Shown piece by piece: positions 5,607-62,035 of a stretch of 64,000 nucleotides of DNA. This stretch comes from a virus (Duplodnaviria; Caudoviricetes): positions 1-64,000 of the IMG/VR virus record IMGVR_UViG_3300049052_000033; one strand, 5' to 3'. Made by a program: the position numbers and the translations under genes. The notes under the pieces were generated by a model, which searched no databases, had not been told where the DNA came from, and saw only the letters and a list, made by a program, of their open reading frames with translations. Position 1 is the stretch's first letter. Each line of letters starts with the position of its first letter.

Positions 5607-6236
5607 ATGACCAACGTAAAGGACACTTCGCCCCGTCAGATCGACTGGGACCTGATCGAAGCCGACTGGCGCGCCGGCATCAAAAGCCAGGCCCAGATGG
5701 CCGAACAATACGGCGTATCGCGCGCCGCCATGGTCAAACGCTTCGACAAATTGGGCATCACGCGCAACCTGGCGCCCAAGATCCGTGACGAAGCCAAGAC
5801 CAAAGTCAGCAAATCCATCATCAGCGCCGTACCGCGCGAGCAGGACGCCGCCAGCGAGAAGGAAGTTGTCGAGGCCAACGCCAACCTGCAATCGCAGATT
5901 GCGCTGGCCCATCGGCGCGATATCCAGCGCGCCCGCAAGCTGTCCATGTCGCTGCTGGACGAGCTGGAAAGCCAGACCGACCACCGCGACCTGATCGAGC
6001 AACTGGGCGACGCGTTGCTGGCCGACGACGACAAGACATTCGGCAAACGGCTGGAAGTGCTGGAACGCCTGACCTCCCTGGCGGCCCGCTCCAACACCCT
6101 GAAAACCCTGACAGATTCCCTGCGCTCCCTGGTGGCGTTAGAGCGCCAAGCCTTCGGCATGGACGAGGAAGAAGGCACCAGCGGCAGCGGTGTCGAAGAC
6201 GTCATTGCCCGCATCCTGAAGAAAAATGGCGGTTAA
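5607..6236 (+). CDS. Terminase small subunit (HTH type)
   Basis: IDWDLIEADWRAGIKS...YGVSRAAMVKR HTH pattern; overlaps the TerL start. Confidence 0.8.
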   Translation: MTNVKDTSPRQIDWDLIEADWRAGIKSQAQMAEQYGVSRAAMVKRFDKLGITRNLAPKIRDEAKTKVSKSIISAVPREQDAASEKEVVEANANLQSQIALAHRRDIQRARKLSMSLLDELESQTDHRDLIEQLGDALLADDDKTFGKRLEVLERLTSLAARSNTLKTLTDSLRSLVALERQAFGMDEEEGTSGSGVEDVIARILKKNGG

Positions 6237-14186: not shown

Positions 14187-14768
14187 GTGGTCACTACCGT
14201 AAAAGTCACCTGCCTGGCACGCGGGCAAGACGGCTCCCCCGTTCCCGGAGCGATTGTCAACGCCAAGCTTTCGGGTGTGGAGGTCGATAGCGCCGCAGGA
14301 TATGTGCTGCCCAAGCAGGTCACCGCGATCGCGGATGCCAGCGGCATCGCCGTCCTGTCCCTCTGGCCCAATCAGCTGGGGTCAACCGCCACATTCTACG
14401 AAGTCAAGATCACCAACCCCGTGACCGGCAAGACAGTCAGGGTCGACGCAACGATTCCCAACGCCGATTGCCAGCTGCACCTGGTGGCCAATCTGCCACC
14501 GTATGAAGGCAAACCCGATGGGCAGCTCGCCGTGGACGCCGCGGCGCAAAGTGCCAATTCGGCTAACGCCGCTGCCCTCACTGCCGTTGCGGCTCGGGAC
14601 GCTACGCAGGCCCTCCTGGCCTCGCCGCTCGCCCTCACCAATCAAACCACCACCACAACCGTTGGCACCGCCGGCGCCGCTGCGCCGTTGCCCGCAACAC
14701 CGCTGGGCTACTGGACTACAACCTTCAACGGCATCGCGGTCAAGATCCCTTTCTATAAAGCCGAGTAG
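14187..14768 (+). CDS. Short tail-fibre-like protein
   Basis: GTG start; first ~135 aa are paralogous to the N-terminus of the next gene. Confidence 0.7.
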   Translation: MVTTVKVTCLARGQDGSPVPGAIVNAKLSGVEVDSAAGYVLPKQVTAIADASGIAVLSLWPNQLGSTATFYEVKITNPVTGKTVRVDATIPNADCQLHLVANLPPYEGKPDGQLAVDAAAQSANSANAAALTAVAARDATQALLASPLALTNQTTTTTVGTAGAAAPLPATPLGYWTTTFNGIAVKIPFYKAE

Positions 14769-14824
14769 TTGGCGACGGGAAGGCCAATGGCTGCGCTGCG
14801 CTAACCAATTTTTGAGGCAATTCT

Positions 14825-34500: not shown

Positions 34501-37500
34501 CGCACGGTGGCCTACAAGTTCATGGAAGTGGCCACGTCCCTGCTGGCGTCCCTGCGCCGCGGACGGTTCGACGTGACGCAACTGGTGTCGGACGTGGATG
34601 CGGTGCGCAACATTATGGTGGCGACCTGGGCCGAGCATACCCGTAGCCGGGACGCACTCACGCAAGACACAGCGCGCCGCGCGGTGCCGGTCTATGCGCC
34701 GGCACTGGACGGCTTAGTGGCGCCAGAACAGCAGCTGTCGACCGACGCGCTGCACCAGCTGGCGGACGCGGTCGTAGCGCCGCTCGCGCATCCGCCGCAA
34801 ATCTTCGTTCTGGATGGCCCGGAATTCCTCGACCGTCATCTGGTCGGGGCTGGCGAGGCGCCAGTGAGCGCGGGGGCGACGATCGGCGGCAAGATTTACC
34901 TGTTCCGTAACGGCATTTCCAGCCGGGATAGCGCGGCGGCCACGATCTGGCATGAGTTGTTCCACTATGGGCTCCGAAAACTGATGACGCCGGATAATTA
35001 TGTTTCGGCAATGTCGAAATTGTACAACATCGACCCACAGGTGAAGGCCTACGCCGATCGCTGGAAGGCGACCGAGGATGCGGCGACGCGCCATCGGTCC
35101 GGGGTCAGCGTGACCGACATGCACGTGCTGGCGGTGGAAGAAGCGCTGGCCGTGATGGCCGAGGAACAGCGCAACGGCAAGCCGGTCGGCACCCGCTATG
35201 CCACCGAAAGCCACATCGGCCGCATGCTGCTGTGGATGGTCAATACCGCCCGCAGCATGGGTCTGGACCGCGTGGCCGAAGCGCTGCGCAAACTGACCCG
35301 GGCGCAGGGCCAGGTGTTCGTGGAAAGCATTTTCGACCGCATCGCCGCCGGCGAACGGGAAGTCGAGGGTGCCATGGCGTCGCTCGACGGCCGCAGCATC
35401 AACTTCCGCGCAGCCGATGGTGCCCGACCTGCCACGGACAGCGACAACTTCCGCGCCTGGTTTGGTGATAGCAAGGTGGTGGACAAGGACGGGGAACCCT
35501 TGGTGGTCTACCACGGCACCACCCGTGACTTTTCCACGTTCGATATCGGCGAACCCTTCGGCGACAAAGAGGCAGGCGCGTTCTTCACCGCCGATCCGGG
35601 CGCCGCCAGCGCCTACGCGCACAAGGAAGGCGGGCGCGTCATGCCGGCATTCCTGCGCATTGAGCACCCTTACGTCACCACGGTAGAGGACTGGGAAAGC
35701 GGCGCGGCCAGTTCAGTGGACGCCATCAAACACGAGGGCCGGCATGATGGCTATCAGGTGAAAGGCTGGTCGGACGCGGGCGACATGTGGATCGCGTTTG
35801 AGCCCGAGCAGATCAAGTCCGCGATCGGCAACGACGGCAGCTTCGATGGCGAGAACCCGGATATCGCGTTCAGCCGTGCAGGGCTGGCCGCGGCGCTGGG
35901 CAAGGCCGCCGGCAACATTGAAAACGTGCGCCTGCCCGCCGGCTACCTGCTGGGCGACCTGTTCAACCGCAGCGGCAAGATCAGCTGGTGGCATAAAAGC
36001 ATCGGCACCATGGACAACCTGGCGCGTCGCCAGCCGCTGTTCGCGCCGGTGTACCGTGCCGTGCAGGGCTTCCTGGGCGACGTGTCGCGCTATGCCGTCG
36101 TGGCAGCCAACAAGGCCCCCACCCTGTTGCCGAAGCTGGAAAAAGTCGCCGACATCCTGGGCAAGGACCGCAAGAAGCCCTTGACGGCGGAGGACACCAA
36201 GGCCATCAGCGCACCGATCTTCGAAGGCACGCTGGTGTGGGCGCGCGACGCCCACGGCAAACCGGTCAAACTGGCCGAGCTGGAAGCATGGGCCGACGGC
36301 CTGACGACCGCCCAGAAGGCCGATATCCTGCTGCAGAAGGGCATCATTGATGACGAAACGAATCAGGCCTGGCTGCACAGCCCGCTGGATCACTACGATG
36401 AAAGCATCAATCGCCGCTTCACCACCACGCAGCTGCAGGCCGGCGTGGTATGGAGCGATGCGGAGCTGCGCGAGCTGTTCCAGCTGGACGACCGTCGCAT
36501 TGGCCTGTACCGCGAATTCCGCGCGGCGCTGGACCAGAGCCTGACCAACCTGACCATCAGCGAGATGGTCAAGCTGGGCGGCAAGGATGCCGAAGGCACG
36601 CTGGACTACGCCATGGCGCAGCCGGACCTGCGCGGTGCTGCGCATTACCTGCGTGATCATTTCGTGGCGCTGGCCAAGCTGCACCCTGAAAAGGCGGACT
36701 GGCATCTGGATACGGCGCGCCAGATCATGGACCTGGCCGACCGCGGCCAGGACCTGATGGACCGTGGCTACGCGCCACTGTCGCGTTTTGGCAAGCACAC
36801 CGTCTACGTGCAGCAGGGCGGCGACCAGGTGTACTTCGGCATGTTCGAAACCCCGTATGAAGCCGCCCGCATGGCGCGCCAGATGGAATCCGAGCACCCG
36901 GGCGCCGACGTGTCGCAGGGCACGGTCTCCGAAGATGCCTACAAGCTGTTCGCCGGCATCGCTCCGGAGACCATCGAGCTGTTCGGTTCCATGGTCGGGC
37001 TCGACAGCCAGGGTGACAGCGCAGGCAGCGAGGTGTACCAGTCGTACCTGAAACTGGCCAAGAACAACCGCAGCGCGATGAAGCGCATGATCGAGCGCAA
37101 GGGCATCGCCGGCTTCTCGGAGGACGCCGGCCGCGTGCTGGCCTCGTTCATCTATTCGAATGCCCGCCTCACCTCGGGTAACGCCAATCTGGGCAAGATT
37201 GACGAGGCCATCACCACCATTCCGAAGCAGGAAGGCGAACTAACCGACGCCGCCATGCAGCTGCGCGAGACCATCCGCAATTCCGAAGGCGGCAACCGGC
37301 TGGGCGGCCTGATGTTCGCCCAGTTCCTCGGTGGGTCGGTGGCATCCGCCCTGGTCAACCTGACGCAGCCGGTGACCATGACCTTGCCCTACCTGAGCCA
37401 ATATGGTGGTATCGGCAAGGCCGGCCAGCGTCTCGCCGGCGCCATCCGCGATGCCGGCAAGCGCAGCACGGGCGACGCGAGGCTGGACGCAGCGCTGCAA

Positions 37501-38799
37501 TGGGCCGCTGACGAAGGTATCGTGGCGCCGCAGGAAGTGCACTACCTGCAGGCGCAAGCGGCCGGCAAGGGGGCTTTGCAATCGGGCGATGGCACACGGG
37601 TCGGCAACGCCCGCGCGCAGCTGAACAACGCCTTGGCCAAGGTCCAGCTGGGCTGGGGCAAGTTGTTCGCCATGGCGGAGGAAGCCAACCGCCGGATCAC
37701 CTTCATTGCGGCCTACCGCACGGCCATCGAGGAAGGCAAGTCCGACCCGGCCCGCTTCGCCGAAGAAGTCGTGACGCAGACACAAGGTACCTACAACAGC
37801 GGCAACCGACCGAAGTGGGCGCGCAACCCGGTCGGTGGCGTCCTGATGACGTTCAAGCAGTACTCCATCGGCTATCTGGAGCTGTTGACACGCATGGCTT
37901 TCGCCGGCCCACCAGGTTCGCCCGAGCGTGCCGCCGGCCGCCGCGCGGCGCTGTACATGGTCGCCGTGCTGTTCCTGATGGCGGGCGCCGATGGACTGCC
38001 GTTCGAACAGGACCTGGAAGACGCCTTGGACGGCGTCATGCAGTGCCTCGGCTACAACTTCTCCACCAAGCGCGCCAAGCAAGAATTCCTGACCGGCGTG
38101 CTGGGCGCGGGCGGCGCCGACTTCGTGCTGAAAGGCGTGTCGAGCATGCCGGGCATGCCGATCGACGTGGCAGGGCGCTTCGGCATGGGCAACTTGATTC
38201 CCGGTACCGGCCTGTTGACGAAGAAAGATTCGTACACGCAGGACCTGGGCGAGCTGGTCGGCCCGGCGGGTGACGTGGCCAAGCGCACGTTCGCCGCCGC
38301 AGGCAAGCTCCTGGGCGGTGACGTCGCCGGCGCGGCGCTGGACATGTCGCCGGCAGCCGTGCGCAACGCCGTCAAGGGTGCCGACATGCTGTCGACCGGT
38401 CATTACTCGGACGGGCGTGGCTACAAGGTCAACGACACCACCCCGATCGAAGGCGTGCTGAAGATCGTCGGCTTCCAGCCAAACAGCACCGCGAATATCC
38501 AGGATGCGAAGGGGCAGGCGCTCGACATGATTAGCCAGACCCGGATGCGCTCCAAGGAGATTCAGGAGCACTGGGCGCAGGGTATTCTGGAAGGCGACGC
38601 CAGCACCATCGCCGAGGCCCGGGCGTGGCGCGACGACTGGAACGCCAAGAACCCGGAAGCGCCGGTGCGCGTGAATATGGCGGCGATCGCCAAGCGGGTG
38701 CGCAACATGCGTCAGGACGTGATGAACCGCACGCAGAAGACGGCGCCGGCCGCGCTGAAGGCGGCCGTGCGCAGCGAACTGTCCGAAACACGCGGATAA
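28543..38799 (+). CDS. Giant polyvalent internal virion protein (3418 aa; InPase-like, C5-MTase-like, two zincin, ART-like and PLxRFG domains)
   Basis: AQKEAGNYKVGH...HYGYIKGT.GAD.DHIDV (InPase-like, ~30770-31170); LSLFDLSG...ATPC...IENPV (MTase-like, ~31900-32510); HETLH (34255) and HELFH (34951); NFRAWFGDSKVVD..GEPLVVYHGT (ART-like, ~35440-35880); GYAPLSRFG (~36770). Confidence 0.9.
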   Translation: MNLNEARQRIPALANLNDQDAIDVLQQHYYPDIDKAQLAQALGVQTPQVDPPQAGVLRTAGDMGIKVAQGVVGLGQAAVGLGSLATGGLVGKGARALGYDPQRTKEILGEYLSDSQKASDAKVANADGFVDTIAASLSNPRALFGSVAESAPGMLGGMGVARAAAGKIAARAALAPTEGAAASAAELAAGRSAASAAQAALRTKAGAQAATDAVEAAGTRLMVTGSAVEGAQTAGQIADDAQAAGRSYGEYALPALAAGVGTAAIGVGAGKFMGDSATQLATGARSTGVRGSLPARIAKEALSEGVLEEMPQSAQEQVWTNAAMGEADLSKGVGNAAGAGLITGAAMGGGLGVLQGEAHHAPTPAPVQLPNTGPLSQAANAGQAATAAKAQANATVPQAPSPAQPSLQEIDDRMAALVAIGSGSLARKERDAAGNLVTIPAVAGRRLTTDEIAEYNRLKQLRTERTTLTPAQQAEFNQLLAAEQEQHNAKHAAAMAAAAEQRNKAEDAELASLMAQDERARQQAEAQQLADAIAASDARVAAGDARRAADKRADLRTGIINDAGIAVADRKQAFADRLRQEGYHSTALTDDDHADFDQAAAPLSSAPNELQDAVPERVAPPVATADTPNLRAVDDAIAAGMRLKTANGKVLHKPGSSKIFRLNSAQLAYYQEAINRPAVAQQAPAPSTAVPTVEPVSPAPEQTAASPMLANAPPIAPASDDGFDAAAHAAATSPHNDLPEPTPAQKEAGNYKVGHVRLHGLDLSIENPVGSVRRGVDRDGQAWESTMQHHYGYIKGTVGADKDHIDVFVGPNRDSDKAFVVDQVHPDSGKFDEHKIMLGFDSVEAARAGYQANYDASWTGGRNISETSIAGLKDWLASGKTRKPFTKLPSAAPAAEPMVAVTPPVSRQALNHLTVADMNDDQLLQARSVFAGHAREPKILRELVRRGLDASAAAPGAPAPAAVTQTDSATTSVEPDASGKLANATAPEHVQTGVDDRELGEIVAEFNEAQAEMMEGDHVVSNIFQPPAKRDIVRLADKAKGKLWNPVEVKAYNKDLAARDELEKEGQPVPAELAKRIRDFEAVYLPHVAKLQAEAQAEIGAWKAHAQAQGLDPETRRANGRKIVLSLFDLSGEWSKPWLEAGYQVYRFDIQDDPEVGDVNNFSSEFFSDWFGDFDGLDIYAILAATPCTDFAVSGARHFAAKDKDGRTVASVKLVHQTMRTIEYFKPVIWGIENPVGRIESLGGLPPWRLAFDPNHLGDSYTKKTLIWGRFNADLPVAPVEATEGSKMHKQYGGKSMATKNARSVTPEGFSYGFFMANNAVDHPVMAVANTFDRLDRDAIAEAMRAGVTEEEIRDAVQDLYYMDLDDDAANDAIRALTREHATEPDPDPSPTQPRGKQDDTVSAPDATLADKAGPAGDDAVATAARDDALQFSRRRIDTDDQLVNIYSQIAQDDAAFRLPDSQGKTLAAVVGDMAPGIVVDGDVEIDLTTADGPNADRVWRLRRGDGAGGDALVFRNTRNKQVWLNISNWKEGRSGHRIYQAIATWAHNTGQVFIGDPDGLSDKALYRRTEQMLSSALRHGTTEHLAPHARQVEDTRTHTGTPVRPIHWREGNDARNLRELLVSSYTNISAIFPEIERVHYNFATGQFERLPASVRAPEHDVLAHAAAGGERAAEEGVGRGSDRGAAGHGIARADEADGQFARVDAVPFTDEDFAALVREVRTAYEQFYPSSRGAYTPPVGVSDLKRAALTGTVLRAEGSDAGRTVLDHVAERLLQRVSIPLESLLYSRDAAYFRHDDAFAPPAIEQGDTVGDTPPAALAGHEYVQALKDTEQLNRRLAGEGMAPVKALRQAPTTQFAMARQIGKALGIRVQFVSGNGDFEGVATGGVAYLANDMRQPALAIAGHETLHALEQSNPALGERLRAQIRSYLKEGVVDDRQAREYAASGFQEVTERQAESEVLADINGAMWLDPGFWAALAKADRSLFRTVAYKFMEVATSLLASLRRGRFDVTQLVSDVDAVRNIMVATWAEHTRSRDALTQDTARRAVPVYAPALDGLVAPEQQLSTDALHQLADAVVAPLAHPPQIFVLDGPEFLDRHLVGAGEAPVSAGATIGGKIYLFRNGISSRDSAAATIWHELFHYGLRKLMTPDNYVSAMSKLYNIDPQVKAYADRWKATEDAATRHRSGVSVTDMHVLAVEEALAVMAEEQRNGKPVGTRYATESHIGRMLLWMVNTARSMGLDRVAEALRKLTRAQGQVFVESIFDRIAAGEREVEGAMASLDGRSINFRAADGARPATDSDNFRAWFGDSKVVDKDGEPLVVYHGTTRDFSTFDIGEPFGDKEAGAFFTADPGAASAYAHKEGGRVMPAFLRIEHPYVTTVEDWESGAASSVDAIKHEGRHDGYQVKGWSDAGDMWIAFEPEQIKSAIGNDGSFDGENPDIAFSRAGLAAALGKAAGNIENVRLPAGYLLGDLFNRSGKISWWHKSIGTMDNLARRQPLFAPVYRAVQGFLGDVSRYAVVAANKAPTLLPKLEKVADILGKDRKKPLTAEDTKAISAPIFEGTLVWARDAHGKPVKLAELEAWADGLTTAQKADILLQKGIIDDETNQAWLHSPLDHYDESINRRFTTTQLQAGVVWSDAELRELFQLDDRRIGLYREFRAALDQSLTNLTISEMVKLGGKDAEGTLDYAMAQPDLRGAAHYLRDHFVALAKLHPEKADWHLDTARQIMDLADRGQDLMDRGYAPLSRFGKHTVYVQQGGDQVYFGMFETPYEAARMARQMESEHPGADVSQGTVSEDAYKLFAGIAPETIELFGSMVGLDSQGDSAGSEVYQSYLKLAKNNRSAMKRMIERKGIAGFSEDAGRVLASFIYSNARLTSGNANLGKIDEAITTIPKQEGELTDAAMQLRETIRNSEGGNRLGGLMFAQFLGGSVASALVNLTQPVTMTLPYLSQYGGIGKAGQRLAGAIRDAGKRSTGDARLDAALQWAADEGIVAPQEVHYLQAQAAGKGALQSGDGTRVGNARAQLNNALAKVQLGWGKLFAMAEEANRRITFIAAYRTAIEEGKSDPARFAEEVVTQTQGTYNSGNRPKWARNPVGGVLMTFKQYSIGYLELLTRMAFAGPPGSPERAAGRRAALYMVAVLFLMAGADGLPFEQDLEDALDGVMQCLGYNFSTKRAKQEFLTGVLGAGGADFVLKGVSSMPGMPIDVAGRFGMGNLIPGTGLLTKKDSYTQDLGELVGPAGDVAKRTFAAAGKLLGGDVAGAALDMSPAAVRNAVKGADMLSTGHYSDGRGYKVNDTTPIEGVLKIVGFQPNSTANIQDAKGQALDMISQTRMRSKEIQEHWAQGILEGDASTIAEARAWRDDWNAKNPEAPVRVNMAAIAKRVRNMRQDVMNRTQKTAPAALKAAVRSELSETRG
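33524..33877 (+). CDS. Candidate nested (+1 frame) 117-aa gene inside the giant gene
   Basis: Third-position G/C bias moves from the main frame to the +1 frame over this stretch; weak RBS. Confidence 0.4.
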   Translation: MYWLTLPLAENALLKKGWDAEAIEALPDTELLALMKQTGSSHEWMQFLSPTRISQLLSGKFEQLMNSSTHPPEELTRHRLACLILRERHLPAPFYAQKEATQGERFWITLQSGCYNE

Positions 38800-44235: not shown

Positions 44236-44263
44236 CCAGTCTCTCCAATCTGTTTAAAGTGCG

Positions 44264-44305
44264 TTACAACAATTTATTGTAAGCGATTTAAATAAATAAT
44301 TGAAG
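44264..44305 (-). promoter_or_regulatory. Sigma70 promoter overlapped by CI-type operators
   Basis: Minus-strand TTCAAT-N17-TACAAT; operator TTACAAC-AATTT-ATTGTAA (44264-44282) plus a half-conserved copy at 44287-44305. Confidence 0.7.
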
Positions 44306-44382
44306 TTTTTTAAAGCAGTCTGGACGGCGGCTTTAAAGCCACGTCAGAATGGCGGGGCAGGGTCATTCAACAGGAAAGCGAT

Positions 44383-50915: not shown

Positions 50916-52055
50916 GTGAGCGGCAGCGACAAACCATCCGACGCGGGCGCGGTGCTGCCTTTCATACACCAGGTGCTGCTGCCGGCATTGCCGGCTCCCG
51001 GCACCCTGACTAACGCCAGCACCGACGACCAGATCATCGCGCTGTGGCTGGCCCGACCGCGTATCTCCAGCCGCACCCACCGCAACGGCGGCAAGGATGC
51101 ATTGCGCTTCCAGCTCTGGTGCCGGGCCTACGGTCTCGGGCTCAAGGATGTACGCTACGAACACCTGGTGGCGTACACCGCCTTCCTTGCCAAGATCCCG
51201 GCGGAGTGGATCAACCCAGTCAAACTGCCACGCACGGACCCTGACTGGCGGCCGTTCGCCCGGCAGCTGTCCGATCGCTCGCAACGTCAGGCGATGATCG
51301 TCATCAAGTCACTGCTGACGTGGATGCACAACGCGGAATACCTGCCCAAGAATCCGGCCAAGCTCTTGGGCAAACTGAACCTGCCGCTGGGCGAGACCGT
51401 CACTCGCTACCTGCCGACAGCCGGCATCGATTACCTATACCGCGCCGCCGATGGAATGCCGGCCGACAAGCCATCCGATATCCTACGGCGCGCCCGGGCC
51501 CGGTTTCTGGTGCGGGCCTATTACAACACAGCGACGCGTCTGTCCGAACTCGTCAACGCCAACATGGATAGTCTGCGCCCGGACGACCACGGCGAATGGT
51601 GGCTGCATGTGATCGGCAAGGGCAACAAGGCTGGTCAGGTTCCGGTGCCCGCTGACCTGGTTGAAGAATATGGGCGGTACCGCCATGCTTTCGGGCTGCC
51701 TACCTATCCCGACGACGGTGAGGAATTACCACTGCTGCTTACCAGCCGCGGGCCCGTGCGTCGCTTGTCCGATTACGCAGCAGGCCGGGCGATCAAGCAG
51801 CTGCTACAGGCCGCTGCCCAGCTGGCGAAAGACGACGGCCAGCATCACCTGGTCAAACGCCTGAAACAAGCTTCTACCCACTGGCTGCGCCATTCCATAC
51901 TGACCCATCAAGTCAATGCGGGCATGCCGATCAAGACCGTGCAATTGAATGCGCGTCACGCCGATATCAGCACGACAGGCCACTACGTCCACAAGGAAGG
52001 ACGCGAACGCCATGCCGAAACAGTAGCTGCCCTGGAAGCGCTGAACAAACGCTGA
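50916..52055 (+). CDS. Tyrosine recombinase (plasmid resolvase/Xer-like)
   Basis: Catalytic R (TATRLSEL), K (IGKGNK), HxxR (HWLRH), H (RHAD) and Y (TTGHY). Confidence 0.93.
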   Translation: MSGSDKPSDAGAVLPFIHQVLLPALPAPGTLTNASTDDQIIALWLARPRISSRTHRNGGKDALRFQLWCRAYGLGLKDVRYEHLVAYTAFLAKIPAEWINPVKLPRTDPDWRPFARQLSDRSQRQAMIVIKSLLTWMHNAEYLPKNPAKLLGKLNLPLGETVTRYLPTAGIDYLYRAADGMPADKPSDILRRARARFLVRAYYNTATRLSELVNANMDSLRPDDHGEWWLHVIGKGNKAGQVPVPADLVEEYGRYRHAFGLPTYPDDGEELPLLLTSRGPVRRLSDYAAGRAIKQLLQAAAQLAKDDGQHHLVKRLKQASTHWLRHSILTHQVNAGMPIKTVQLNARHADISTTGHYVHKEGRERHAETVAALEALNKR

Positions 52056-52062
52056 TCCGGGA

Positions 52063-52097
52063 ATTATTCCCGGGGAATAATCGCTAAGTCTTTGATT
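52063..52097. promoter_or_regulatory. parS-like palindrome plus IHF site, copy 1
   Basis: ATTATTCCC-G-GGGAATAAT followed by TAA-GTCT-TTGATT (reverse of WATCAANNNNTTR). Confidence 0.65.
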
Positions 52098-52159
52098 TGA
52101 CTAGACTGACAGGAATATGGGGACGAATTAACGCCACAGAATTCCTATCGATGCCGCCA

Positions 52160-52194
52160 ATTATTCCCGGGGAATAATCGCTAACTCATTGATT
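52160..52194. promoter_or_regulatory. parS-like palindrome plus IHF site, copy 2
   Basis: ATTATTCCC-G-GGGAATAAT followed by TAA-CTCA-TTGATT. Confidence 0.65.
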
Positions 52195-52385
52195 TATAAC
52201 GGATTCCTGTCACCCCGCCGCACGACAACCGAACAAGAAAAAACAAGCCATCCCACAATCAGCACCCCTGGCCAAGCCGATTCCGCGCGAATTTGCTACG
52301 CAAATTTCCCCAGCTCCCGCTGGGTCGCTTCGGCTGCTTAAAGACCATCCGTATATCAATAAGCGAATTGCGATTGCCAGCTCTT

Positions 52386-53585
52386 TCATCCATCAAGCAA
52401 TAGATTCGGCAGACCAAAATTCACAGGACCAGCGTCAAACACCCCCGGCTCAACACCCACCGCTGACCCCGCAGGTACCTGATGTGCACCATACTTAACA
52501 GTGCTTTGCTGAGCGCGCACTGTCTCCAGAGTGGCGACCGGCGCCGGCTGCAGGGCCGACTCAAGCAGGTGTTTATAGCTGGCTACCGTCTGGCGAGAGA
52601 GGCGGGCGACCTTAGCCACTGCGGTCTGCGTCAGCTTCACGCCCTGGTCGAGGAGCTGCCGGCAGGCGCCACGGATTTTCGATTCAGTGGCCTGGTGGCG
52701 CCGGCCGTGCGTGCGCTCGGCGGCCATGCGCTGGCGAACTTGCAGCGGAAGGCTGTCGTCCAGCTGCATCACCCCTCGATGGCATCCTCCGCTGCCTTTG
52801 TAGTAGGTCCATGTCCAGCGGGCCACAGACCGCACAGTCGATCGCAGCGACGACAACGGAAGGTTCTCGGCGAATCCATATTTGTGGAAGCTGTTATGGT
52901 TGTGGGCGAAGGCATCCAGCAATCGCGAGAACCCTTCGAACGTCCCGTTAGACCGCTCGCGGTTCACGATGGAGTAGGCGTAGTGGCGCAGCAGCTCAAA
53001 CAGGATGCAGTGACGGGACTGGGCGACGTCTTCGACATTGGCTTGTTTTGCCCAGGGCGCAGTGCGTTCCAGCTCGACATGGTCGGCCAGCTCCCCCAGC
53101 TCGTACTCGTGCGCATGCAGTTCGTCGGTTAACCACCAGCGATGACCTGGTGTCTTGGCGACGGGGCCGCTGTGGAAGCTGCGGTCCGCATCCAGCCTGG
53201 CCGCCATTGCTTCGTAGATCGCCTTCATATAGGCAATCGGTTTGTCGCGTGCCGCCTCAGTCGTGCAGACCGGGACGATGGCGTAGAACAGGTGGCTTTT
53301 CCCGCTTTGCCTGTTGCGCACGATCAGGTTTGGTGCCGGCAGGCCCACGTCCTCCCAGCGCATCGCATGAGAGTGGTCCAGGTCGAAGATTAGCCAGCTG
53401 ACGAACCCCGGGCGGTTGACCTGCATGTACGGGTAGCGAATGGCGTACTCGCGCGGCCGCACACGCGTCGCGGTCTTATCGTCGCTACACCTGGGGTAAT
53501 ACGGGGCTTCCGTCAGGACGCGCGACAGCGCCGTCCCTTCCTGGAAGAACCGTTGTTGCGATTCTTCAATCTTAGGCACGAACAT
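52386..53585 (-). CDS. repA: Plasmid replication initiator, ColE2-type replicase/primase (Replicase + PriCT + HTH)
   Basis: PYYPRCSDD, YMQVNRP, WLIFDLD, KSHLFY, GPVAKTP motifs; PriCT-like helical region; C-terminal HTH; GAGG RBS (start 53585 or 53591). Confidence 0.88.
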   Translation of the reverse strand: MFVPKIEESQQRFFQEGTALSRVLTEAPYYPRCSDDKTATRVRPREYAIRYPYMQVNRPGFVSWLIFDLDHSHAMRWEDVGLPAPNLIVRNRQSGKSHLFYAIVPVCTTEAARDKPIAYMKAIYEAMAARLDADRSFHSGPVAKTPGHRWWLTDELHAHEYELGELADHVELERTAPWAKQANVEDVAQSRHCILFELLRHYAYSIVNRERSNGTFEGFSRLLDAFAHNHNSFHKYGFAENLPLSSLRSTVRSVARWTWTYYKGSGGCHRGVMQLDDSLPLQVRQRMAAERTHGRRHQATESKIRGACRQLLDQGVKLTQTAVAKVARLSRQTVASYKHLLESALQPAPVATLETVRAQQSTVKYGAHQVPAGSAVGVEPGVFDAGPVNFGLPNLLLDG

Positions 53586-53618
53586 AGCCATCCTCGCCCC
53601 CAAAAGGGGGTAAAGTGG

Positions 53619-53755
53619 TTGACAGGGGCTAAGAGGGGGTCTAAGATGAAGCTTCCTAGTAAGGGGGTTCCAGCCCCCTGACGCTGCATCCAGTACCATC
53701 GACTCTGTAGCTGTACATGAAACGCCTCGGTTCCAGCCGGGGCGTTTCGCTTTTC
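53619..53755 (+). ncRNA. Candidate counter-transcribed antisense RNA of the repA leader (promoter plus ~100-nt RNA)
   Basis: TTGACA-N17-TAAGAT at 53619-53647 pointing opposite to repA; terminator GAAACGCC...GGCGTTTC-GCTTTT at 53719-53755. Confidence 0.65.
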
Positions 53756-53853
53756 AGGGTCCGGTTATCGGTCCATGTGGTTCCTTTGTCCAAATACGTC
53801 GAAACCCGACCAAAGGCCGGGTTTCGCGGTTTACGGGTTAACGATTAGACTAT

Positions 53854-53886
53854 TATTCCCGGGGAATATTACATAAGCCATTGATT
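53854..53886. promoter_or_regulatory. parS-like palindrome plus IHF site, copy 3
   Basis: TATTCCC-G-GGGAATA followed after 5 bp by TAA-GCCA-TTGATT, at the parB 3' end. Confidence 0.65.
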
Positions 53887-54842
53887 TAATTGACTTTCAT
53901 GTCTTTTTTCTGCTGCGTCAAACGCTCCAGAGCTTCCTCGATGGCACGGCGCACCTCCGCCATATCTAGATCCGGGTCGGCCAGGCGCGTTACGATATCG
54001 CGATCCTTTTCCAGCGTAACAAAGCACGCGTCCCCCGACGGGTAGGGGATATGGTGCCGCCCTCGCTGGGTGCTTGTCCGCTCAGTCTTACTTTTTACTT
54101 TGTTGCTTACAGCTTGTGCAACCCATGCCCGGAGGCCGTTTTGTTCGACACCTGGTTCGACTAAGCGACGAATACCTGCGATGACCAATTCGCTGTGTTC
54201 CGGATATTGATCCCACAGCGCCTGGACAACAGCGGCTGCCTTCGCACCGAATAACCCCGGTTCCTTGTCCAGCTCGTCCAATATCGGCTTGGGCAGGTCG
54301 AGCATACTCAGGCATTTCGATACCTTTCCCTGCGAACAGCCCCAAAGCTCGGCCACTCCCGACTGGCTCGACGCGAAGCCGTCGTCCAGCGCCTCGCGGA
54401 ACATCAACGCATGTTCGTAGTCGGTATTAGGCCGGCTGGTATTGTCCAGCCAGACGTCCAGCTTCGCCTGCCGATCATCACGTACAACCACAAGCGCCCG
54501 CAGTTCGGGAATGCCGCGATCCTTGGCGGCCCGGGTACGGGTTTCGCCTTTCAAAAGCTCATAACGACCGTTGGCTTTTTGACGCACCGTAATCGGCGTG
54601 CGCTGGCCAGCAGTAATGAGCGTCGCGCCCACTTGGTCAACGGCAATCGGGTCAACCTTCTTGCGGCTTTGGTACGGGGAATAGTCCAGCAGATCCACGG
54701 CAATCATGCGCTCGACCGCCACGTCGGCAGTCGGCGTCTGCGCCTGATTTTGCGCCTCAGGGAGAGCGTCGAACGCGTGAGACTCGCTTCCAGCAGTAGG
54801 TGCTGCAACTTTTCCAGCTTGAATCAGTCCGGACACCTTCAT
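53886..54842 (-). CDS. parB: ParB partition protein
   Basis: SPYQSR, GQRTPITVR, YELLKGETRTRA (ParB box II-like), HTH region SQSGVAELWGCSQGKVSK. Confidence 0.9.
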   Translation of the reverse strand: MKVSGLIQAGKVAAPTAGSESHAFDALPEAQNQAQTPTADVAVERMIAVDLLDYSPYQSRKKVDPIAVDQVGATLITAGQRTPITVRQKANGRYELLKGETRTRAAKDRGIPELRALVVVRDDRQAKLDVWLDNTSRPNTDYEHALMFREALDDGFASSQSGVAELWGCSQGKVSKCLSMLDLPKPILDELDKEPGLFGAKAAAVVQALWDQYPEHSELVIAGIRRLVEPGVEQNGLRAWVAQAVSNKVKSKTERTSTQRGRHHIPYPSGDACFVTLEKDRDIVTRLADPDLDMAEVRRAIEEALERLTQQKKDMKVN

Positions 54843-55888
54843 GCAGCAGCCTCCAGGCCGTATGGCTTGATGCCGGCAAGGCGAACGTCATACAGCTTTA
54901 CCAGCGATCGAGTCAGGTCGATAATCTCGCGAGCCCCCACGCTATTCAGTTCGCGCTCCAGCACCGGCGCATTGCTGGTGACATTGGCCGGATCTGTCTC
55001 TCGCAAGAATCCGACGAAATCTCGGACAACGTTATCGTTGACTTTGCCAGGATACTTAGACAGCAACACGGAGAGATTGTCGCGATGCGGTTGGCGTGAC
55101 TGGTTGAACTTATTGACCACGATATGCACGTCAAGCCTCACACCAGAATCGCGCAACGCCTGGTTAATTTCTTGCACATTCGACGCCAGCACATCCAGCG
55201 CGGTAATGGCTTGACCTTCAGGTGCCACAACGGCCAGTAACTGTTTGCTTGCCACCATGAAGCTGGTCGCCAGCAGCGAGGCCCCCGGGGCCGAGTCGAT
55301 GATAATTACGTCATACTGGCTGAAAAATTCCAGTTCCGCTTCTAACAAACGCTTAAACACATGTTCCCGCGCCATAGCCCCAATCATCCAGGCATCGTCC
55401 GCCATCGTGATATCGCTCGGGATCAGGTCAAGCATGCCGCCCACGTACATTGGACGAACGGCCTCGCGGATTCTAGTTGGTTCACCGCGCGCGTTCCGCT
55501 TCATCAGCTCAGCGATGTGCGTGATCGGTTCAGCCATTGCGTCAATGCCGTAGAGGCCTGTCAGCGAAGCCTGAGGGTCCCCGTCGATTAGCAGGACCTT
55601 GTAGCCCATCAGGGCCATAGCACAAGCCACGTTGCCCGAAATGGTAGTCTTACCTACGCCGCCCTTCGCCATGCGTGTATTCATGATTGGCGGCAAGGCC
55701 AGCGGGCGCTTCGTGTCCTGAGGAATATTCAATAGCTGCATCCGAATACTGCGGATGCGCTGCGGAGAGTAAAGCTGCACGGTGCCATCGTTGGCTTCGC
55801 GGAAACGGTCACGGAACATCTTAGGTGACCCCGTGAAGCCGGTAAAATCCTGTGCGTGTTTTGGTTTAATGCCGGGGAAGTTTCGCAT
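54839..55888 (-). CDS. parA: ParA partition ATPase (type Ia with N-terminal extension)
   Basis: KGGVGKTT Walker A, LLIDGDPQASLT, YDVIIIDSAP. Confidence 0.93.
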   Translation of the reverse strand: MRNFPGIKPKHAQDFTGFTGSPKMFRDRFREANDGTVQLYSPQRIRSIRMQLLNIPQDTKRPLALPPIMNTRMAKGGVGKTTISGNVACAMALMGYKVLLIDGDPQASLTGLYGIDAMAEPITHIAELMKRNARGEPTRIREAVRPMYVGGMLDLIPSDITMADDAWMIGAMAREHVFKRLLEAELEFFSQYDVIIIDSAPGASLLATSFMVASKQLLAVVAPEGQAITALDVLASNVQEINQALRDSGVRLDVHIVVNKFNQSRQPHRDNLSVLLSKYPGKVNDNVVRDFVGFLRETDPANVTSNAPVLERELNSVGAREIIDLTRSLVKLYDVRLAGIKPYGLEAAA

Positions 55889-58183: not shown

Positions 58184-58233
58184 CTACAACAAATAGTTGA
58201 AGTTCAGCGAGTATATATCAATTTTTCGGTGTA
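58184..58233 (-). promoter_or_regulatory. Leftward sigma70 promoter with a CI-type operator just downstream
   Basis: Minus-strand TTGCTA-N16-TATACT; operator CTACAAC-AAATA-GTTGAAG at 58184-58202. Confidence 0.6.
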
Positions 58234-58335
58234 GCAAGTGCTGCATTCCGGCAAACCTGAATTCCGTTATACAAAATCAGCTTTCAGGAGTTGCAAATAA
58301 GGCTATATACTTTGCCCGAAGCATTGGAGATTTAT

Positions 58336-59343
58336 ATGTCCCGGCTGCCCCTATACCGACACCCAACGACAACCGTCATTCTTGACGAGTCGCAGCACCA
58401 CATTCACGCCGTGCCAACCGAGCTGGATACCCAGCACCCGACCGTCACCTTTACGAATGCGGCGGATGCCGTCGAATACATCACCGGGGCGCAGGCGATG
58501 ATGGACCATGCACGCAGCCCGATTGCCCTGGATCCTGTGGCGCCGGCGGCTGGCGTTCCGGTCGGGTCGCTTTCGGACGGGCTCGACCACATTTACGGCT
58601 ACGTGCAGGACCCGCAGCGATTCTGCGCGCCGGCAGTCGTGGTCGTTGAATACTCGCGCGCCGCCGGCGGGGGCATGGAGTTTTGCGAGGAAATCGCGCA
58701 CCTGCCCGTCAAGTGCATCTGGCGGTCCCGTGCCGCGGAGCAGCACGATGGTATTGCGGCCTATCAGCGCGGCCTGGTCAATCGGTTTGTGCAGCGCGAA
58801 GCGGGCTGGGCCAGCCGCGGCCTGTTGGAGTCCGTGGAAATGCTCGAGCACGAATACTTCGTGGAGCTATCCCAGCGCCTTCCGGGGCACATCCTTGATA
58901 CTGCGTCCTATCGCTTCCTGCAGGACCCGGCATTTGCCTCCCTGGTGCAGGAGCAGGCCGACCGCTATGGATTCGTCGAGCACTACCTGTTCACGGCACC
59001 CAGCGGCCTGTTGTTTTTCGACGCCGATGGGCATGCCACCTTGATGGTCGTCCAGACCGAAGAAAGCTTGGCCACCCAGTTCGAAATCGCGCGTGACGCG
59101 CAGGCACCGGTGCGCCTGTTGCAGGACCTGTTCAAGTGCAGGGTGGTGCCGTTTTTCGGCACGGAGGATGGCATGTACTCCGACCAGCTGGAGGACGATC
59201 CATGCAGCTATTGCCAGCCGGCGCTCGTATGTCGCGGAAGCAGCGACTACTACTGGGCATTGTTTGACGTGCCGCCCGGTATGCGAAAGGGCCAGGCCTT
59301 CCCTTATGCCCGGTATCGCGAGACAGGCCCGCTACGCGGTTAG
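58336..59343 (+). CDS. LqsR/JqsR-family response regulator homolog with an atypical receiver domain (Asp replaced by Glu)
   Basis: P.T.V..D(E)S N-terminus, P.RF...VVVVEY...GMEFC..I, GIAAYQRGLVNRFV, EYF, FL.DPAF, VEHYLF...SGLLFFDADG follow the recalled LqsR pattern over ~335 aa; GGAG RBS. Confidence 0.8.
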   Translation: MSRLPLYRHPTTTVILDESQHHIHAVPTELDTQHPTVTFTNAADAVEYITGAQAMMDHARSPIALDPVAPAAGVPVGSLSDGLDHIYGYVQDPQRFCAPAVVVVEYSRAAGGGMEFCEEIAHLPVKCIWRSRAAEQHDGIAAYQRGLVNRFVQREAGWASRGLLESVEMLEHEYFVELSQRLPGHILDTASYRFLQDPAFASLVQEQADRYGFVEHYLFTAPSGLLFFDADGHATLMVVQTEESLATQFEIARDAQAPVRLLQDLFKCRVVPFFGTEDGMYSDQLEDDPCSYCQPALVCRGSSDYYWALFDVPPGMRKGQAFPYARYRETGPLRG

Positions 59344-59348
59344 GGCCG

Positions 59349-60245
59349 CTACGATAGAAGGCCCAAGCGCACCGCTGCATCGACAATCTGGTTGGTGGTC
59401 TCGACGCCCAGCTTTCCCTTGATCGCCTTAATGCGGCGGTCAATGGTCGGAATGCTCACGCCCATGAAGGCAGCAATTTCTTTGCGCAGGCGGCCATTCT
59501 TCAGGTAGGCAATGATCTCCACGTCATTCGCCGGAATTCCGACTTCGTCTTGCTCCTGCGCTGAGGCCGCACGGGCAGCTTGCAATCGCCCCAGCAAGGC
59601 ATGCGCGGCGTGGGCCAGCATGATCAGGTTTGGCTCCATTTGCGCCAGCTCGACCGGGTCAATGTCCGGATCTGCGCGCGATAGGACCAGAGTAGCCAGG
59701 CCGTCATCGGAGCGGAGCACCCAGCCAGAGCGAATACCGTGCCGGCTCGCCAGTGACCAGAACGCCGGGTTTTCTGCATGGCGTTCTCGCGCGGTCCATG
59801 TGGTTGGCCCTGTCATTTGGTTGACGCGTGGATCGATCAGGACAAGTTGTTCCCGATCGTAGGCCTCGCGCCATTCCCGCAGGTGATTGTGTTCTACCAC
59901 CATGTCGCCTGGGTCGCGCGCAGAGTGGGCCACGCCCAGCGTGGTGCCGAAACCGAATTTCTCGCGCGCCAGCTTGGCGATCGCCGAAAACTGCTTGTGA
60001 TCGGGCAGGTCTTGCAGTTCACGAATGATGCGTTTGCCCCACCGGTTGGTCCCGTCGCGGTGCTCGATCGGCAAGGTGAGCGGCGCGTCGCGCGCCTGGC
60101 GCTGCACTCGTTCCGCCGACAGGATGCGTTGATGAATGGTCTTGAGCTGCAGCCAAGGCTGCCAATCGACACGGCGACGAATCCTGCGCAGCACGAAACT
60201 GGCGAACTCGCCGGCCGGCACCGGCATGCCCGTGCTCTCCGACAT
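59349..60245 (-). CDS. LuxR-family regulator (autoinducer-binding domain plus HTH), orphan, with N-terminal extension
   Basis: W125, Y129, D138, P139, W150, G174 match the conserved AHL-pocket W/Y/D/P/W/G set; C-terminal LuxR HTH (KEIAAFMGVSIPTIDRRI..IKGKLGV). Confidence 0.88.
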   Translation of the reverse strand: MSESTGMPVPAGEFASFVLRRIRRRVDWQPWLQLKTIHQRILSAERVQRQARDAPLTLPIEHRDGTNRWGKRIIRELQDLPDHKQFSAIAKLAREKFGFGTTLGVAHSARDPGDMVVEHNHLREWREAYDREQLVLIDPRVNQMTGPTTWTARERHAENPAFWSLASRHGIRSGWVLRSDDGLATLVLSRADPDIDPVELAQMEPNLIMLAHAAHALLGRLQAARAASAQEQDEVGIPANDVEIIAYLKNGRLRKEIAAFMGVSIPTIDRRIKAIKGKLGVETTNQIVDAAVRLGLLS

Positions 60246-60505
60246 AGCGTAATGTTCGACGTGATGCCATGCGGCGGGATGACGAACCGTCGAAGGCTAT
60301 CATCGTAGTACCAGTGCCATCGGACCCACACATCCGGCTGATAGCTTCCACGCCATTCAGCGAATCCCGCTATCAGGACCGGGAAAAGGCGCTTCAATTG
60401 CTCCAGCAGCTGGTCGTCCACGTCGATCGTCAGGCGGCGCTGCGCGATGCGCTTCAAGGCTGCGCGGGTCAGGCGCACTTCCTGGTCGTGGGTTGAGCCG
60501 GTCAT
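60246..60505 (-). pseudogene. Upstream coding segment that appears frameshifted relative to the LuxR ORF
   Basis: 87 high-GC3 codons from ATG 60505 (MTGSTHDQ); the coding signal switches frame at ACG CTA TGT / ATG TCG with no stop codon. Confidence 0.45.
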
Positions 60506-60724: not shown

Positions 60725-60985
60725 ATGAGTAAAGTGGTATCCCGCCTGACCCGCATTGCAACCGGTAGCATGACCTCTGATCGTACTGAAGCCGCGGCGC
60801 TCTACGCCCTGGCACAAGCCTATCGCCGCGCGTCGCGGGCCGATCAGGCCTATTTACTGGCGGTGGCCCAAGACCTGGGCCGTGGCGAAGATTTGGAAAT
60901 GGAGCAAGTCGTGGCCCGCATGCCGGCGCCGGCTTCCCGTGGAAGGTTACGCTTGGTTCAGGGCGGCGGGCGGCAGAGCCGGTAA
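60725..60985 (+). CDS. Small protein resembling the CI C-terminal domain (candidate antirepressor)
   Basis: AAAGG RBS; residues 28-51 align ungapped with CI residues 106-129; divergent from luxR and convergent with cI. Confidence 0.6.
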   Translation: MSKVVSRLTRIATGSMTSDRTEAAALYALAQAYRRASRADQAYLLAVAQDLGRGEDLEMEQVVARMPAPASRGRLRLVQGGGRQSR

Positions 60986-61393
60986 CTCCCCTGCAGGCTT
61001 TTTCTCAATCCGTGCGGCCGACAGCAGCAGCTGTCGCTGGCCGGCATCGGTGCCCATGCGGAAGTGGTGCAGCAGTTCCATCTCCTTCGTCCCCTCGACG
61101 AAAACCAGCAAATACTCCGGCTGCTGCCGACGCGGGCCGGTGGGGATCGTCTGGACCTGGCCATCGATGTCGCCATACAACAAGTAGGATTCGGTCACCC
61201 CGAAGTGCATGGCCAGCTTGGTCAGCATGGCAGGGCGTGGAAGCTGCGGGCCAGTCAGCCATTTGCTGACCGCTTGCGGCGAAGTCCCGACGATGCGCGC
61301 AAGTTCGGACTGGTTGCCGTCGTGATATTCGTGCAGTAAGGCTCTGAGGCGGTCCGCGAAAGTTTCCGGCGCCTTCTCTTTCATTTGTTCCAT
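60947..61393 (-). CDS. cI: CI-like XRE/HTH repressor without an S24 autopeptidase domain
   Basis: FADRLRALL...NQSELARIVGTSPQAVSKW HTH; only 148 aa; divergent from cro. Confidence 0.88.
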   Translation of the reverse strand: MEQMKEKAPETFADRLRALLHEYHDGNQSELARIVGTSPQAVSKWLTGPQLPRPAMLTKLAMHFGVTESYLLYGDIDGQVQTIPTGPRRQQPEYLLVFVEGTKEMELLHHFRMGTDAGQRQLLLSAARIEKKPAGELPALPPAALNQA

Positions 61394-61402
61394 TGCAATA
61401 GG

Positions 61403-61469
61403 TTACAACGTTTCGTTGTAAATGGCACTTCAATATTTTGTTGTAGAAACCCCTCTGTTGTTTTAATAT
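61403..61469. promoter_or_regulatory. cI/cro operator pair and rightward promoter
   Basis: TTACAAC-GTTTC-GTTGTAA (61403-61421), CTTCAAT-ATTTT-GTTGTAG (61428-61446); TTGTAG-N17-TAATAT (61441-61469). Confidence 0.8.
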
Positions 61470-61504
61470 TTTGGTTCAATAGTTTTTGCCAATGGAAACA
61501 GGAA

Positions 61505-61702
61505 TTGAGTACAGGAATAGCAAAGGCAGTGGAGCTTGCCGGCAATTCGCAGACAGGCCTCGCTAAAGCCATCGGGTTGACCCCGCAGGCCGTACAGCGC
61601 TGGGTGTCGCTGGGCCGCACTTCCGCGCAGGGCGCTGTGCTGATTGAAAAGGCCTACCCGGGCCGCATTACGCGCGCCGAACTCTGTCCGATCTTCGCCT
61701 GA
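61505..61702 (+). CDS. cro: Cro-like repressor (YdaS type)
   Basis: TTG start; KAVELAGNSQTGLAKAIGLTPQAVQRW HTH; TRAELCP C-terminus. Confidence 0.85.
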   Translation: MSTGIAKAVELAGNSQTGLAKAIGLTPQAVQRWVSLGRTSAQGAVLIEKAYPGRITRAELCPIFA

Positions 61703-61732
61703 CCTGGCACACACCCACCACAAGGATTTCGC

Positions 61733-62035
61733 ATGACCAACGAAACCACTGCAGTAGAGACTGAACTGGAATTCTCGCGTTCCTCGCTACTTGACGAGGT
61801 TCAATTATCTCCGGAAGTGACCAGCCGGTCACGCAAGAATCAATCGGTAATCTTGCAAAAGATGCAGGAAGTGACGGGCGTTGAGTTGGCGGCCCGCATG
61901 GGCTTCCACGAATCCCAGATTTCGCGCTTCAAGAATGGCCCGTTGCAGTTCGCTGCCTGCCTGCTGGCAGCAGCAGGCCTGAAAGTGGTGCCGGCCGACG
62001 CCGTGGTCTATGTCAAGCCGACCGAGTACGAATGA
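61733..62035 (+). CDS. cII: CII-family transcriptional regulator
   Basis: SRKNQSVILQKM...LAARMGFHESQISRFK...LLAAAGLKVVP; position after cro. Confidence 0.8.
   Translation: MTNETTAVETELEFSRSSLLDEVQLSPEVTSRSRKNQSVILQKMQEVTGVELAARMGFHESQISRFKNGPLQFAACLLAAAGLKVVPADAVVYVKPTEYE

Follow-up and report, generated by a model that had tools for sequence, protein, structure and literature searches.

In the 64,000-nt stretch of DNA analysed here (the window), which covers positions 1 to 64,000 of the IMG/VR virus record IMGVR_UViG_3300049052_000033, we identified a gene for a response regulator of the LqsR/JqsR family (alpha-hydroxyketone quorum sensing), referred to here as the JqsR-like gene, in which catalytic residues of the receiver domain have been lost. 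It appears that the virus took over a signalling regulator of its host and uncoupled it from the kinase. We lean, with modest confidence, towards a functional, kinase-independent member of the family that is carried as an accessory regulatory cassette by phage-plasmids of ~77 kb and that would fix one JqsR output state. The gene and the codons of its receiver site are as follows.

58336..59343, + strand: LqsR/JqsR-family gene, 335 amino acids (open frame; homology, fold and AlphaFold2 model)
58384..58389, + strand: codons of D17-E18, the acidic (Mg-binding) pair, which is mostly DD across the family
58648..58650, + strand: codon GAA of E105, in the phospho-acceptor column that corresponds to D108 of Legionella LqsR
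58795..58797, + strand: codon of R154, in the column of the conserved receiver Lys

The window gene belongs to the LqsR/JqsR family. When its product was searched with phmmer against all PDB chains, the sole match was 6sy9_A (E 6e-21, residues 4-278), with VVVVDY aligned on VVVVEY, and a profile built from 76 homologs matched 6sy9 at 3.9e-114 over the full length (residues 4-334). The AlphaFold2 model of the protein had a predicted local distance difference test score (pLDDT) of 91.9 and a predicted template modelling (TM) score of 0.91. Its top Foldseek match was again 6sy9, "Legionella pneumophila response regulator LqsR" (E 1.3e-24, TM 0.76/0.83), and the runners-up were ordinary receiver domains at E 6e-5 or weaker. 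The window protein is 35-40% identical to chromosomal JqsR and 22-23% identical to LqsR. Homologs at 35-40% identity lie directly after genes for a class I/II aminotransferase (jqsA/cqsA type) and a histidine kinase, and such jqsA-jqsS-jqsR-type clusters were found in genomes of Duganella, Pseudoduganella, Massilia, Janthinobacterium, Rugamonas and Gallionella. Phylogenetic placement put the protein inside chromosomal JqsR of Oxalobacteraceae and Gallionellaceae, and the family-invariant residues R95, F96 and E215 are kept in it. The preliminary description of the window, made from its letters alone, had named the family, and the PDB match, the top fold match and the chromosomal clusters all agree with that call. 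It had also reported neither an autoinducer synthase nor a sensor kinase in the window; this holds for the whole 72-kb record, in which no HATPase_c and no Aminotran_1_2 (class I/II aminotransferase) match was found while the controls were positive. In a second class of chromosomal locus, seen in Pseudoduganella, Duganella and Massilia, the jqsR-like gene directly follows one for a jqsS-like kinase, and jqsA does not occur within 6 kb (L015, L016, L019, L021, L023, L024, L026-L029, L039 and L088).

The JqsR-like protein consists of an N-terminal pseudo-receiver (~residues 1-160) and a C-terminal LqsR-type output domain (~190-335) that is degenerate GGDEF-like; in LqsR itself the output domain has a degenerate GGDEF-like fold, with no function assigned to it (PMC10653808). 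The gene is preceded by a GGAG Shine-Dalgarno sequence at 58326-58329, with the ATG 6 nt further on. A script check found the open frame and all motifs at the residues reported before, i.e. D17-E18, VVVVEY at 101-106 (E105), KCIWRS at 126-131 (S131) and RFVQR at 150-154. Residue columns were read from an alignment of 161 full-length LqsR/JqsR family members. The acceptor column, on which LqsR is phosphorylated (D108; PMC3376566), has D in 148 of the 161 members and E105 in the window protein, so the D to E change on the phospho-acceptor had been recognised correctly, and it is lineage-specific. D17 and E18 occupy the acidic-pair columns (D in 150/161 and 143/161, respectively) and S131 the column of the switch Thr (T in 146/161). 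The conserved Lys (K in 151/161) is replaced by R154, not by Q153 of RFVQR, and the Pro of the MPxM(N/D)G motif that follows the acceptor (P in 139/161) by Ala. D17-E18 and S131 are conservative changes; E105 and R154 depart from the Asp and Lys of a catalytically complete receiver.

The fold around these positions is that of a receiver. According to DSSP on the AlphaFold2 model, the catalytic-column residues sit where strands b1, b3, b4 and b5 end on their C-terminal side, which is the canonical receiver layout, and the model shows a (beta-alpha)5 domain with E105 and R154 ending b3 and b5, which is the arrangement of a pseudo-receiver. A Pfam scan of the protein returned no family, including Response_reg PF00072, even at E <= 1, and precomputed PF00072 matches are present on the Asp-type relatives described below. 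NCBIfam and PHROGs gave no meaningful match, and neither a ligand/autoinducer-binding nor a DNA-binding domain was found by Pfam or Foldseek. In pseudo-receivers, no substitutions are commoner than D to E and K to R (PMC12632262), which supports the pseudo-receiver reading. As the residues for phosphotransfer are missing, the receiver is read as phosphorylation-independent, and the window protein would be a kinase-independent pseudo-receiver, unable to take phosphate. The sequence itself is reproducible, since contigs from an independent rhizosphere metagenome (X2) are identical to the window across the gene. Contigs from two RNA runs (X23 and X24) overlap parts of the gene and its neighbours, with strand, level and DNA carry-over not resolvable from the contigs.

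We examined the origin of the gene in a maximum-likelihood tree of 69 family members. All phage-plasmid copies fall into a single clade of 18 rows with support 99, which lies within chromosomal JqsR, and the tree requires one change of context between the chromosomal and phage-plasmid labels and two changes between D and non-D at the acceptor. A single origin is shown on this tree, with host jqsR captured once by an ancestor of the phage-plasmids. One phage-plasmid branch keeps the Asp and the other catalytic residues (P0008, P0013-17, P0020 and L011). The window falls in a non-Asp subclade (9 rows, support 99), in which the acceptor is Glu in seven members, Ala in one (P0004) and Lys in one (P0005), the last two coming from short contigs. 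In all nine members the conserved Lys has become Arg, Asn or Ser; the acidic pair is partly lost, the MPxM motif is gone and helix a1 is rewritten. The related phage-plasmids with a canonical Asp gene had been missed in the preliminary description. Glu in chromosomal orthologs, which that description had named as a refuting finding, was seen once. The sole other Glu in the near family belongs to P0029, a chromosomal JqsR homolog (L092, contig of GCA_028291995.1, gene 5928-6941), and here jqsA and jqsS were deleted in place from the otherwise conserved globin-...-FtsX locus, leaving the gene an orphan. P0029 is an independent example in which Asp and kinase were lost together, and it strengthens the link between the two losses, that of the kinase being read from the in-situ deletion only.

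An Asp-type element is present in Massilia frigida alongside chromosomal jqsA, jqsS and jqsR, so that a plausible kinase for the phage-plasmid copy is at hand.

Comparison of the window with its closest relative, L002 (75% identity), gave dN/dS (the ratio of nonsynonymous to synonymous substitution rates) values of 0.18 overall, 0.20 for the receiver and 0.17 for the output domain, which are rough values as dS between the two is ~1.0 and near saturation. A ratio of 0.18 implies that the gene is functional, and purifying selection is shown in both domains. It could be argued that the gene is only a decaying relic, i.e. a captured jqsR that lost its link to the kinase and is drifting toward a pseudogene, as its catalytic residues are lost, its receiver evolves faster and Pfam does not match it. 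However, nine lineages, up to 55% apart in sequence, all have an intact frame, dN/dS stays at 0.18-0.37, the fold is predicted with high confidence with R95, F96 and E215 kept, and the identical sequence recurs in an independent metagenome. The selection analysis largely refutes such decay, and we regard it as highly improbable.

The two domains have diverged at different rates. Inside the Glu clade, the receivers are 36-39% identical, compared with 55-57% for the output domains, whereas between Asp-type elements the figures are 57% for the receiver and 51% for the output domain. This pattern bears on the idea that the protein is a dominant-negative decoy, which would bind host JqsS and block its kinase or phosphatase activity, or form dead heterodimers with JqsR, and so silence the alpha-hydroxyketone pathway. 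LqsR binds LqsS and LqsT whether phosphorylated or not, and phospho-LqsR dimerises (PMC5289986); the likely hosts of the element have JqsS and JqsR, and an acceptor that is E, A or K fits a rule of "anything but Asp". On the other hand, the receiver, including the kinase-docking helix a1, diverges fastest and is not conserved within the clade, the opposite of what is expected for docking to a conserved kinase, and the selection on the output domain (dN/dS 0.17), as strong as that on the receiver, is not needed by a pure decoy. We consider a decoy unlikely.

The gene lies on a virus, as had been supposed, and more precisely on a phage-plasmid. The source record is 72,364 bp long and 91% complete (CheckV). 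It encodes the small and large terminase, tail fibres, a tail-fibre assembly protein and an internal virion protein, together with the following.

28543-38799, + strand: polyvalent protein of 3,418 amino acids with LPD37, InPase and ART-PolyVal domains
50916..55888, no strand given: plasmid maintenance block of tyrosine recombinase, Replicase+PriCT_1 initiator, ParB and ParA (domain scans)

Given this gene set (terminases, tail, Rep/ParAB and cI/cro/cII), the record is a phage-plasmid, with virion and packaging genes and plasmid replication and partition genes on one replicon. Its large terminase (TerL) is 76% identical to that of a circular closed 87-kb "unnamed plasmid" (NZ_CP024609.1) of Massilia violaceinigra B2 (L102 and L103), itself a phage-plasmid of this family and the nearest relative in culture, which also has N4-gp56-type capsid, tail fibre and GH19 lysin genes and a matching regulatory block; the closest deposited phage by large terminase reaches 45% identity only. 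JqsR-like homologs also occur on contigs that were assembled independently and measure 76.5-79.7 kb; direct terminal repeats are present on one. The best explanation is that these elements are a lineage of ~77-kb phage-plasmids of Massilia-group Oxalobacteraceae. The stretch was detected in soil and rhizosphere metagenomes from some 20 studies. A misassembled fragment of a host chromosome was considered and rejected, as the same synteny is present in >10 independent assemblies and on the closed circular plasmid. The M. violaceinigra plasmid has a 5,555-aa PLxRFG protein as the counterpart of the 3,418-aa polyvalent protein. It also encodes, among its structural genes, a separate 129-aa single-domain response regulator (record 14686-15075); a counterpart of it was searched for in the window and was absent.

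The JqsR-like gene is part of a conserved cassette, whose other members in the window are listed here.

59349..60505, - strand: RsaM(DUF4902)-LuxR fusion gene (Pfam Autoind_bind, GerE and DUF4902; two-frame tblastn match)
60725..60985, + strand: small open reading frame (ORF) of 86 amino acids, divergent from RsaM-LuxR and overlapping the 3' end of cI; kept in all related loci (alignment)
60947..61393, - strand: cI-like helix-turn-helix (HTH) repressor (Pfam HTH_3)
61385..62035, + strand: Cro-like (YdaS/HTH_3) and CII-like genes (domain search)

The gene order in all elements examined is ParB, ParA, small genes, JqsR-like (+), RsaM(DUF4902)-LuxR (-), small ORF (+), cI (-) and cro (+). Ten elements have this order (the window, L002, L003, L008, L009, L011, L090, L091, the P0008 contig and the M. 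violaceinigra plasmid), and in 10/10 the JqsR-like and RsaM-LuxR genes stand tail to tail beside cI/cro. A scan of IMG/VR with the RsaM-LuxR alignment matched only contigs that also carry the JqsR-like gene. The JqsR-like gene is missing in 13 related phage records (TerL 61-81% identical, 7/13 being 100% complete), by a search that was positive in two known carriers. As there are related phages without it, the JqsR-like/RsaM-LuxR pair is an accessory cassette of one sublineage, and the virion module is common to elements of differing lifestyle and regulatory cargo. Cassette-less relatives in IMG/VR (TerL 61-77%) are L113, L118, L120, L122, L151, L153, L136, L143, L131 and L115; some of them are classed as proviruses and some have direct terminal repeats.

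In the window, a frameshift of 1 nt at 60245 breaks the RsaM-LuxR gene. An extra A after 60245 is present in the independent metagenome runs X2 and X3, and with it the ORF is intact, 385 aa long and 70% identical to its L002 counterpart; the break is therefore either an error of assembly or a rare variant. This larger fusion gene probably underlies the 298-aa "orphan LuxR with extra N-terminal residues", which would then be an artefact of assembly. The RsaM-LuxR protein has both an autoinducer-binding and a DNA-binding domain. A LuxI model found no match in the element's own record, but the control genomes were silent too, and the same model was positive in M. frigida. This species (G001) has LuxI-type synthases at C222:60113-60610 and C22:179-457, besides jqsA, and the two quorum-sensing-type regulators of the element would thus match two signal systems of the host. 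The 86-aa ORFs of all related elements share a C-terminal LRLV motif. By its position, this ORF is a candidate antirepressor, by analogy with the small antirepressor genes beside phage VqmA and LuxR receptors.

Operator-like palindromes were identified upstream of the JqsR-like gene and between cI and cro.

58185..58201, + strand: 17-bp imperfect palindrome TACAAC-N5-GTTGAA, 135 nt upstream of the JqsR-like start
61404..61445, + strand: two operator-like palindromes (61404-61420, which is perfect, and 61429-61445) in the cI-cro intergenic region

The first of these resembles both cI-cro palindromes. Palindromes like TACAAC-N5-GTTGTA occur four times in the window, where 0.67 would be expected, and not one of 100 shuffled sequences had as many; the fourth is at 44265-44281, within the intergenic region 44236-44382. 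As candidate repressor operators, the four would define a small regulon. A half-site of the upstream palindrome is kept in L002 and a comparable pair is present in L003, which hints that the phage repressor or Cro may control the JqsR-like gene. An imperfect 16-bp palindrome, TGTAGCAAGTGCTGCA, was also seen in the JqsR-like promoter region at 58230-58245, with its outer bases kept in L002, and it may be a LuxR-type box.

Perhaps the protein serves the phage itself, tuning lysis-lysogeny or plasmid maintenance together with RsaM-LuxR and the small-ORF/cI module and leaving the host JqsR regulon unaffected. The tail-to-tail pairing with RsaM-LuxR in every one of the ten elements fits such a role, as do the adjoining cI/cro, the operator-like site upstream and the lack of both genes in related phages without the pair. 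Yet LqsR-family proteins have no DNA-binding domain, and synteny alone is weak evidence; we hold such a purely internal role to be quite improbable.

The reading that we prefer, a kinase-independent regulator that fixes one JqsR output state, can be set out as a sequence of steps. An ancestral element captured host jqsR once. In the early-branching elements, which have a canonical Asp receiver and hosts with chromosomal jqsA-jqsS-jqsR, the protein would plausibly be phosphorylated by host JqsS, and through it the element would read the host alpha-hydroxyketone signal. In the sublineage of the window, the receiver then became a pseudo-receiver while the LqsR-type output domain was conserved; descent from a canonical phage-borne copy is shown. 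The activity of such a protein would be set by the amount made and not by the cell density of the host, with expression possibly driven from a promoter with a cI/Cro-type operator. The output domain most likely shares its downstream partner with host JqsR, and the host would be held in a single JqsR output state whatever the cell density. A more specific version can be offered only tentatively: the stolen JqsR would have been wired first into the host alpha-hydroxyketone phosphorelay, and one branch would later have turned it into a kinase-blind effector under the control of cI/Cro, perhaps with RsaM-LuxR, so that the virus dictates JqsR output.

The preliminary description saw E105 as a built-in phosphomimetic that locks the host circuit on. 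Glu activates many regulators (PMC12632262), but here a phosphomimetic role is doubtful, because Ala and Lys also occupy the acceptor position in the subclade and the phosphoryl-contacting Lys is lost in 9/9 members. In Legionella, LAI-1 inhibits the autophosphorylation of LqsS and LqsT, and phospho-LqsR is the dimerising form (PMC5289986). By analogy, since the signal inhibits the kinases, a protein that truly mimicked phospho-LqsR would reproduce the low-signal state, which is the reverse of "locked on".

Several points weigh against the preferred reading. Constitutive activity driven by Glu has been disproved for some pseudo-receivers (PMC12632262). Diguanylate cyclase activity was looked for and not found in LqsR (PMC10653808), and, with no function assigned to its output domain either, a downstream partner shared with host JqsR is a conjecture. 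The upstream operator-like site is clear in the window and L003, half-kept in L002 and not evident in L090. The tree comes from a quick search with Shimodaira-Hasegawa-like approximate likelihood ratio test (SH-aLRT) support only, and the near-saturated dS blurs the estimate of selection. Moreover, the Massilia-type host that the window's own element would have is taken from the 76% TerL identity to the M. violaceinigra plasmid only.

With Legionella LqsR (6SY9) and Janthinobacterium/Duganella JqsR, the window protein shares full-length homology, the receiver plus degenerate GGDEF-like output fold and the invariant output residues. It differs from them in having Glu for Asp and Arg for Lys and in the loss of the MPxM(N/D)G motif, and its gene has no linked synthase or kinase and lies on a phage-plasmid beside cI/cro. 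A family member outside the lqs cluster is known in Ralstonia, where PhcX is likewise uncoupled from lqsA/lqsS and rewired to another context (PMC10653808). However, PhcX is chromosomal and was described with the same receiver domain as LqsR (PMC10653808), whereas in the window the uncoupling is in the catalytic site and the carrier is viral. Bacterial pseudo-receivers, or aspartate-less receivers, have the same receiver fold with D to E and K to R, and are presumably phosphorylation-independent (PMC4395418, PMC12632262). What sets the present case apart from them is that the canonical ancestor type and its pseudo-receiver descendants are both kept in sister mobile elements, and that the output domain is of LqsR type.

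Quorum-sensing genes beside the lysis-lysogeny switch are likewise found on phage-plasmids such as VP882 (VqmA-Phi) and ARM81ld (LuxR), with their small antirepressors (PMC6456758, PMC10432266), and the layout of RsaM-LuxR with its divergent small ORF is that of the transcription-factor/small-ORF modules of VP882 and ARM81ld. Those receptors bind autoinducer and DNA directly. The JqsR-like protein has neither domain and comes from a two-component pathway, and in the lineage of the window, as judged from its residues, it would be unable to receive the signal. The RsaM-LuxR gene has its own counterparts in the "type 8" RsaM-LuxR chimeras of Massilia, which have the same DUF4902, autoinducer-binding and HTH architecture and were described in two Massilia species with no luxI nearby (PMC10710839). 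No phage or plasmid context is mentioned for them (PMC10710839), whereas here the chimera lies on phage-plasmids, where the JqsR-like gene accompanies it in all elements examined.

The preliminary description knew of no phage with this family, and we have met none either. There was no tblastn match to the LqsR/JqsR family among the 50,697 deposited phage genomes of INPHARED, and, judged by title and abstract, none of the papers found to name both LqsR and prophage appears to describe a phage-borne LqsR. We found no earlier record of a two-component quorum-sensing response regulator, or of an LqsR/JqsR member, on a phage or phage-plasmid. Phage-encoded one-component autoinducer receptors of the VqmA and LuxR types and small anti-quorum-sensing proteins are already known. 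What is new is the two-component quorum-sensing regulator on a virus, with the transition from canonical receiver to pseudo-receiver preserved among sister elements. With this, the "RsaM-LuxR chimeras of Massilia" are re-labelled as phage-plasmid genes, and the element proves to be widespread in metagenomes of soil and rhizosphere. The sister elements offer a natural series at the acceptor, from canonical Asp to Glu and then to Ala and Lys, and a cultured relative, M. violaceinigra B2, is usable for genetics; with both at hand, the activation of pseudo-receivers and the role of the LqsR output domain become testable questions. Should the proposed mechanism hold, the virus would be overriding a two-component quorum-sensing pathway, and both stages of this evolution would still exist today.

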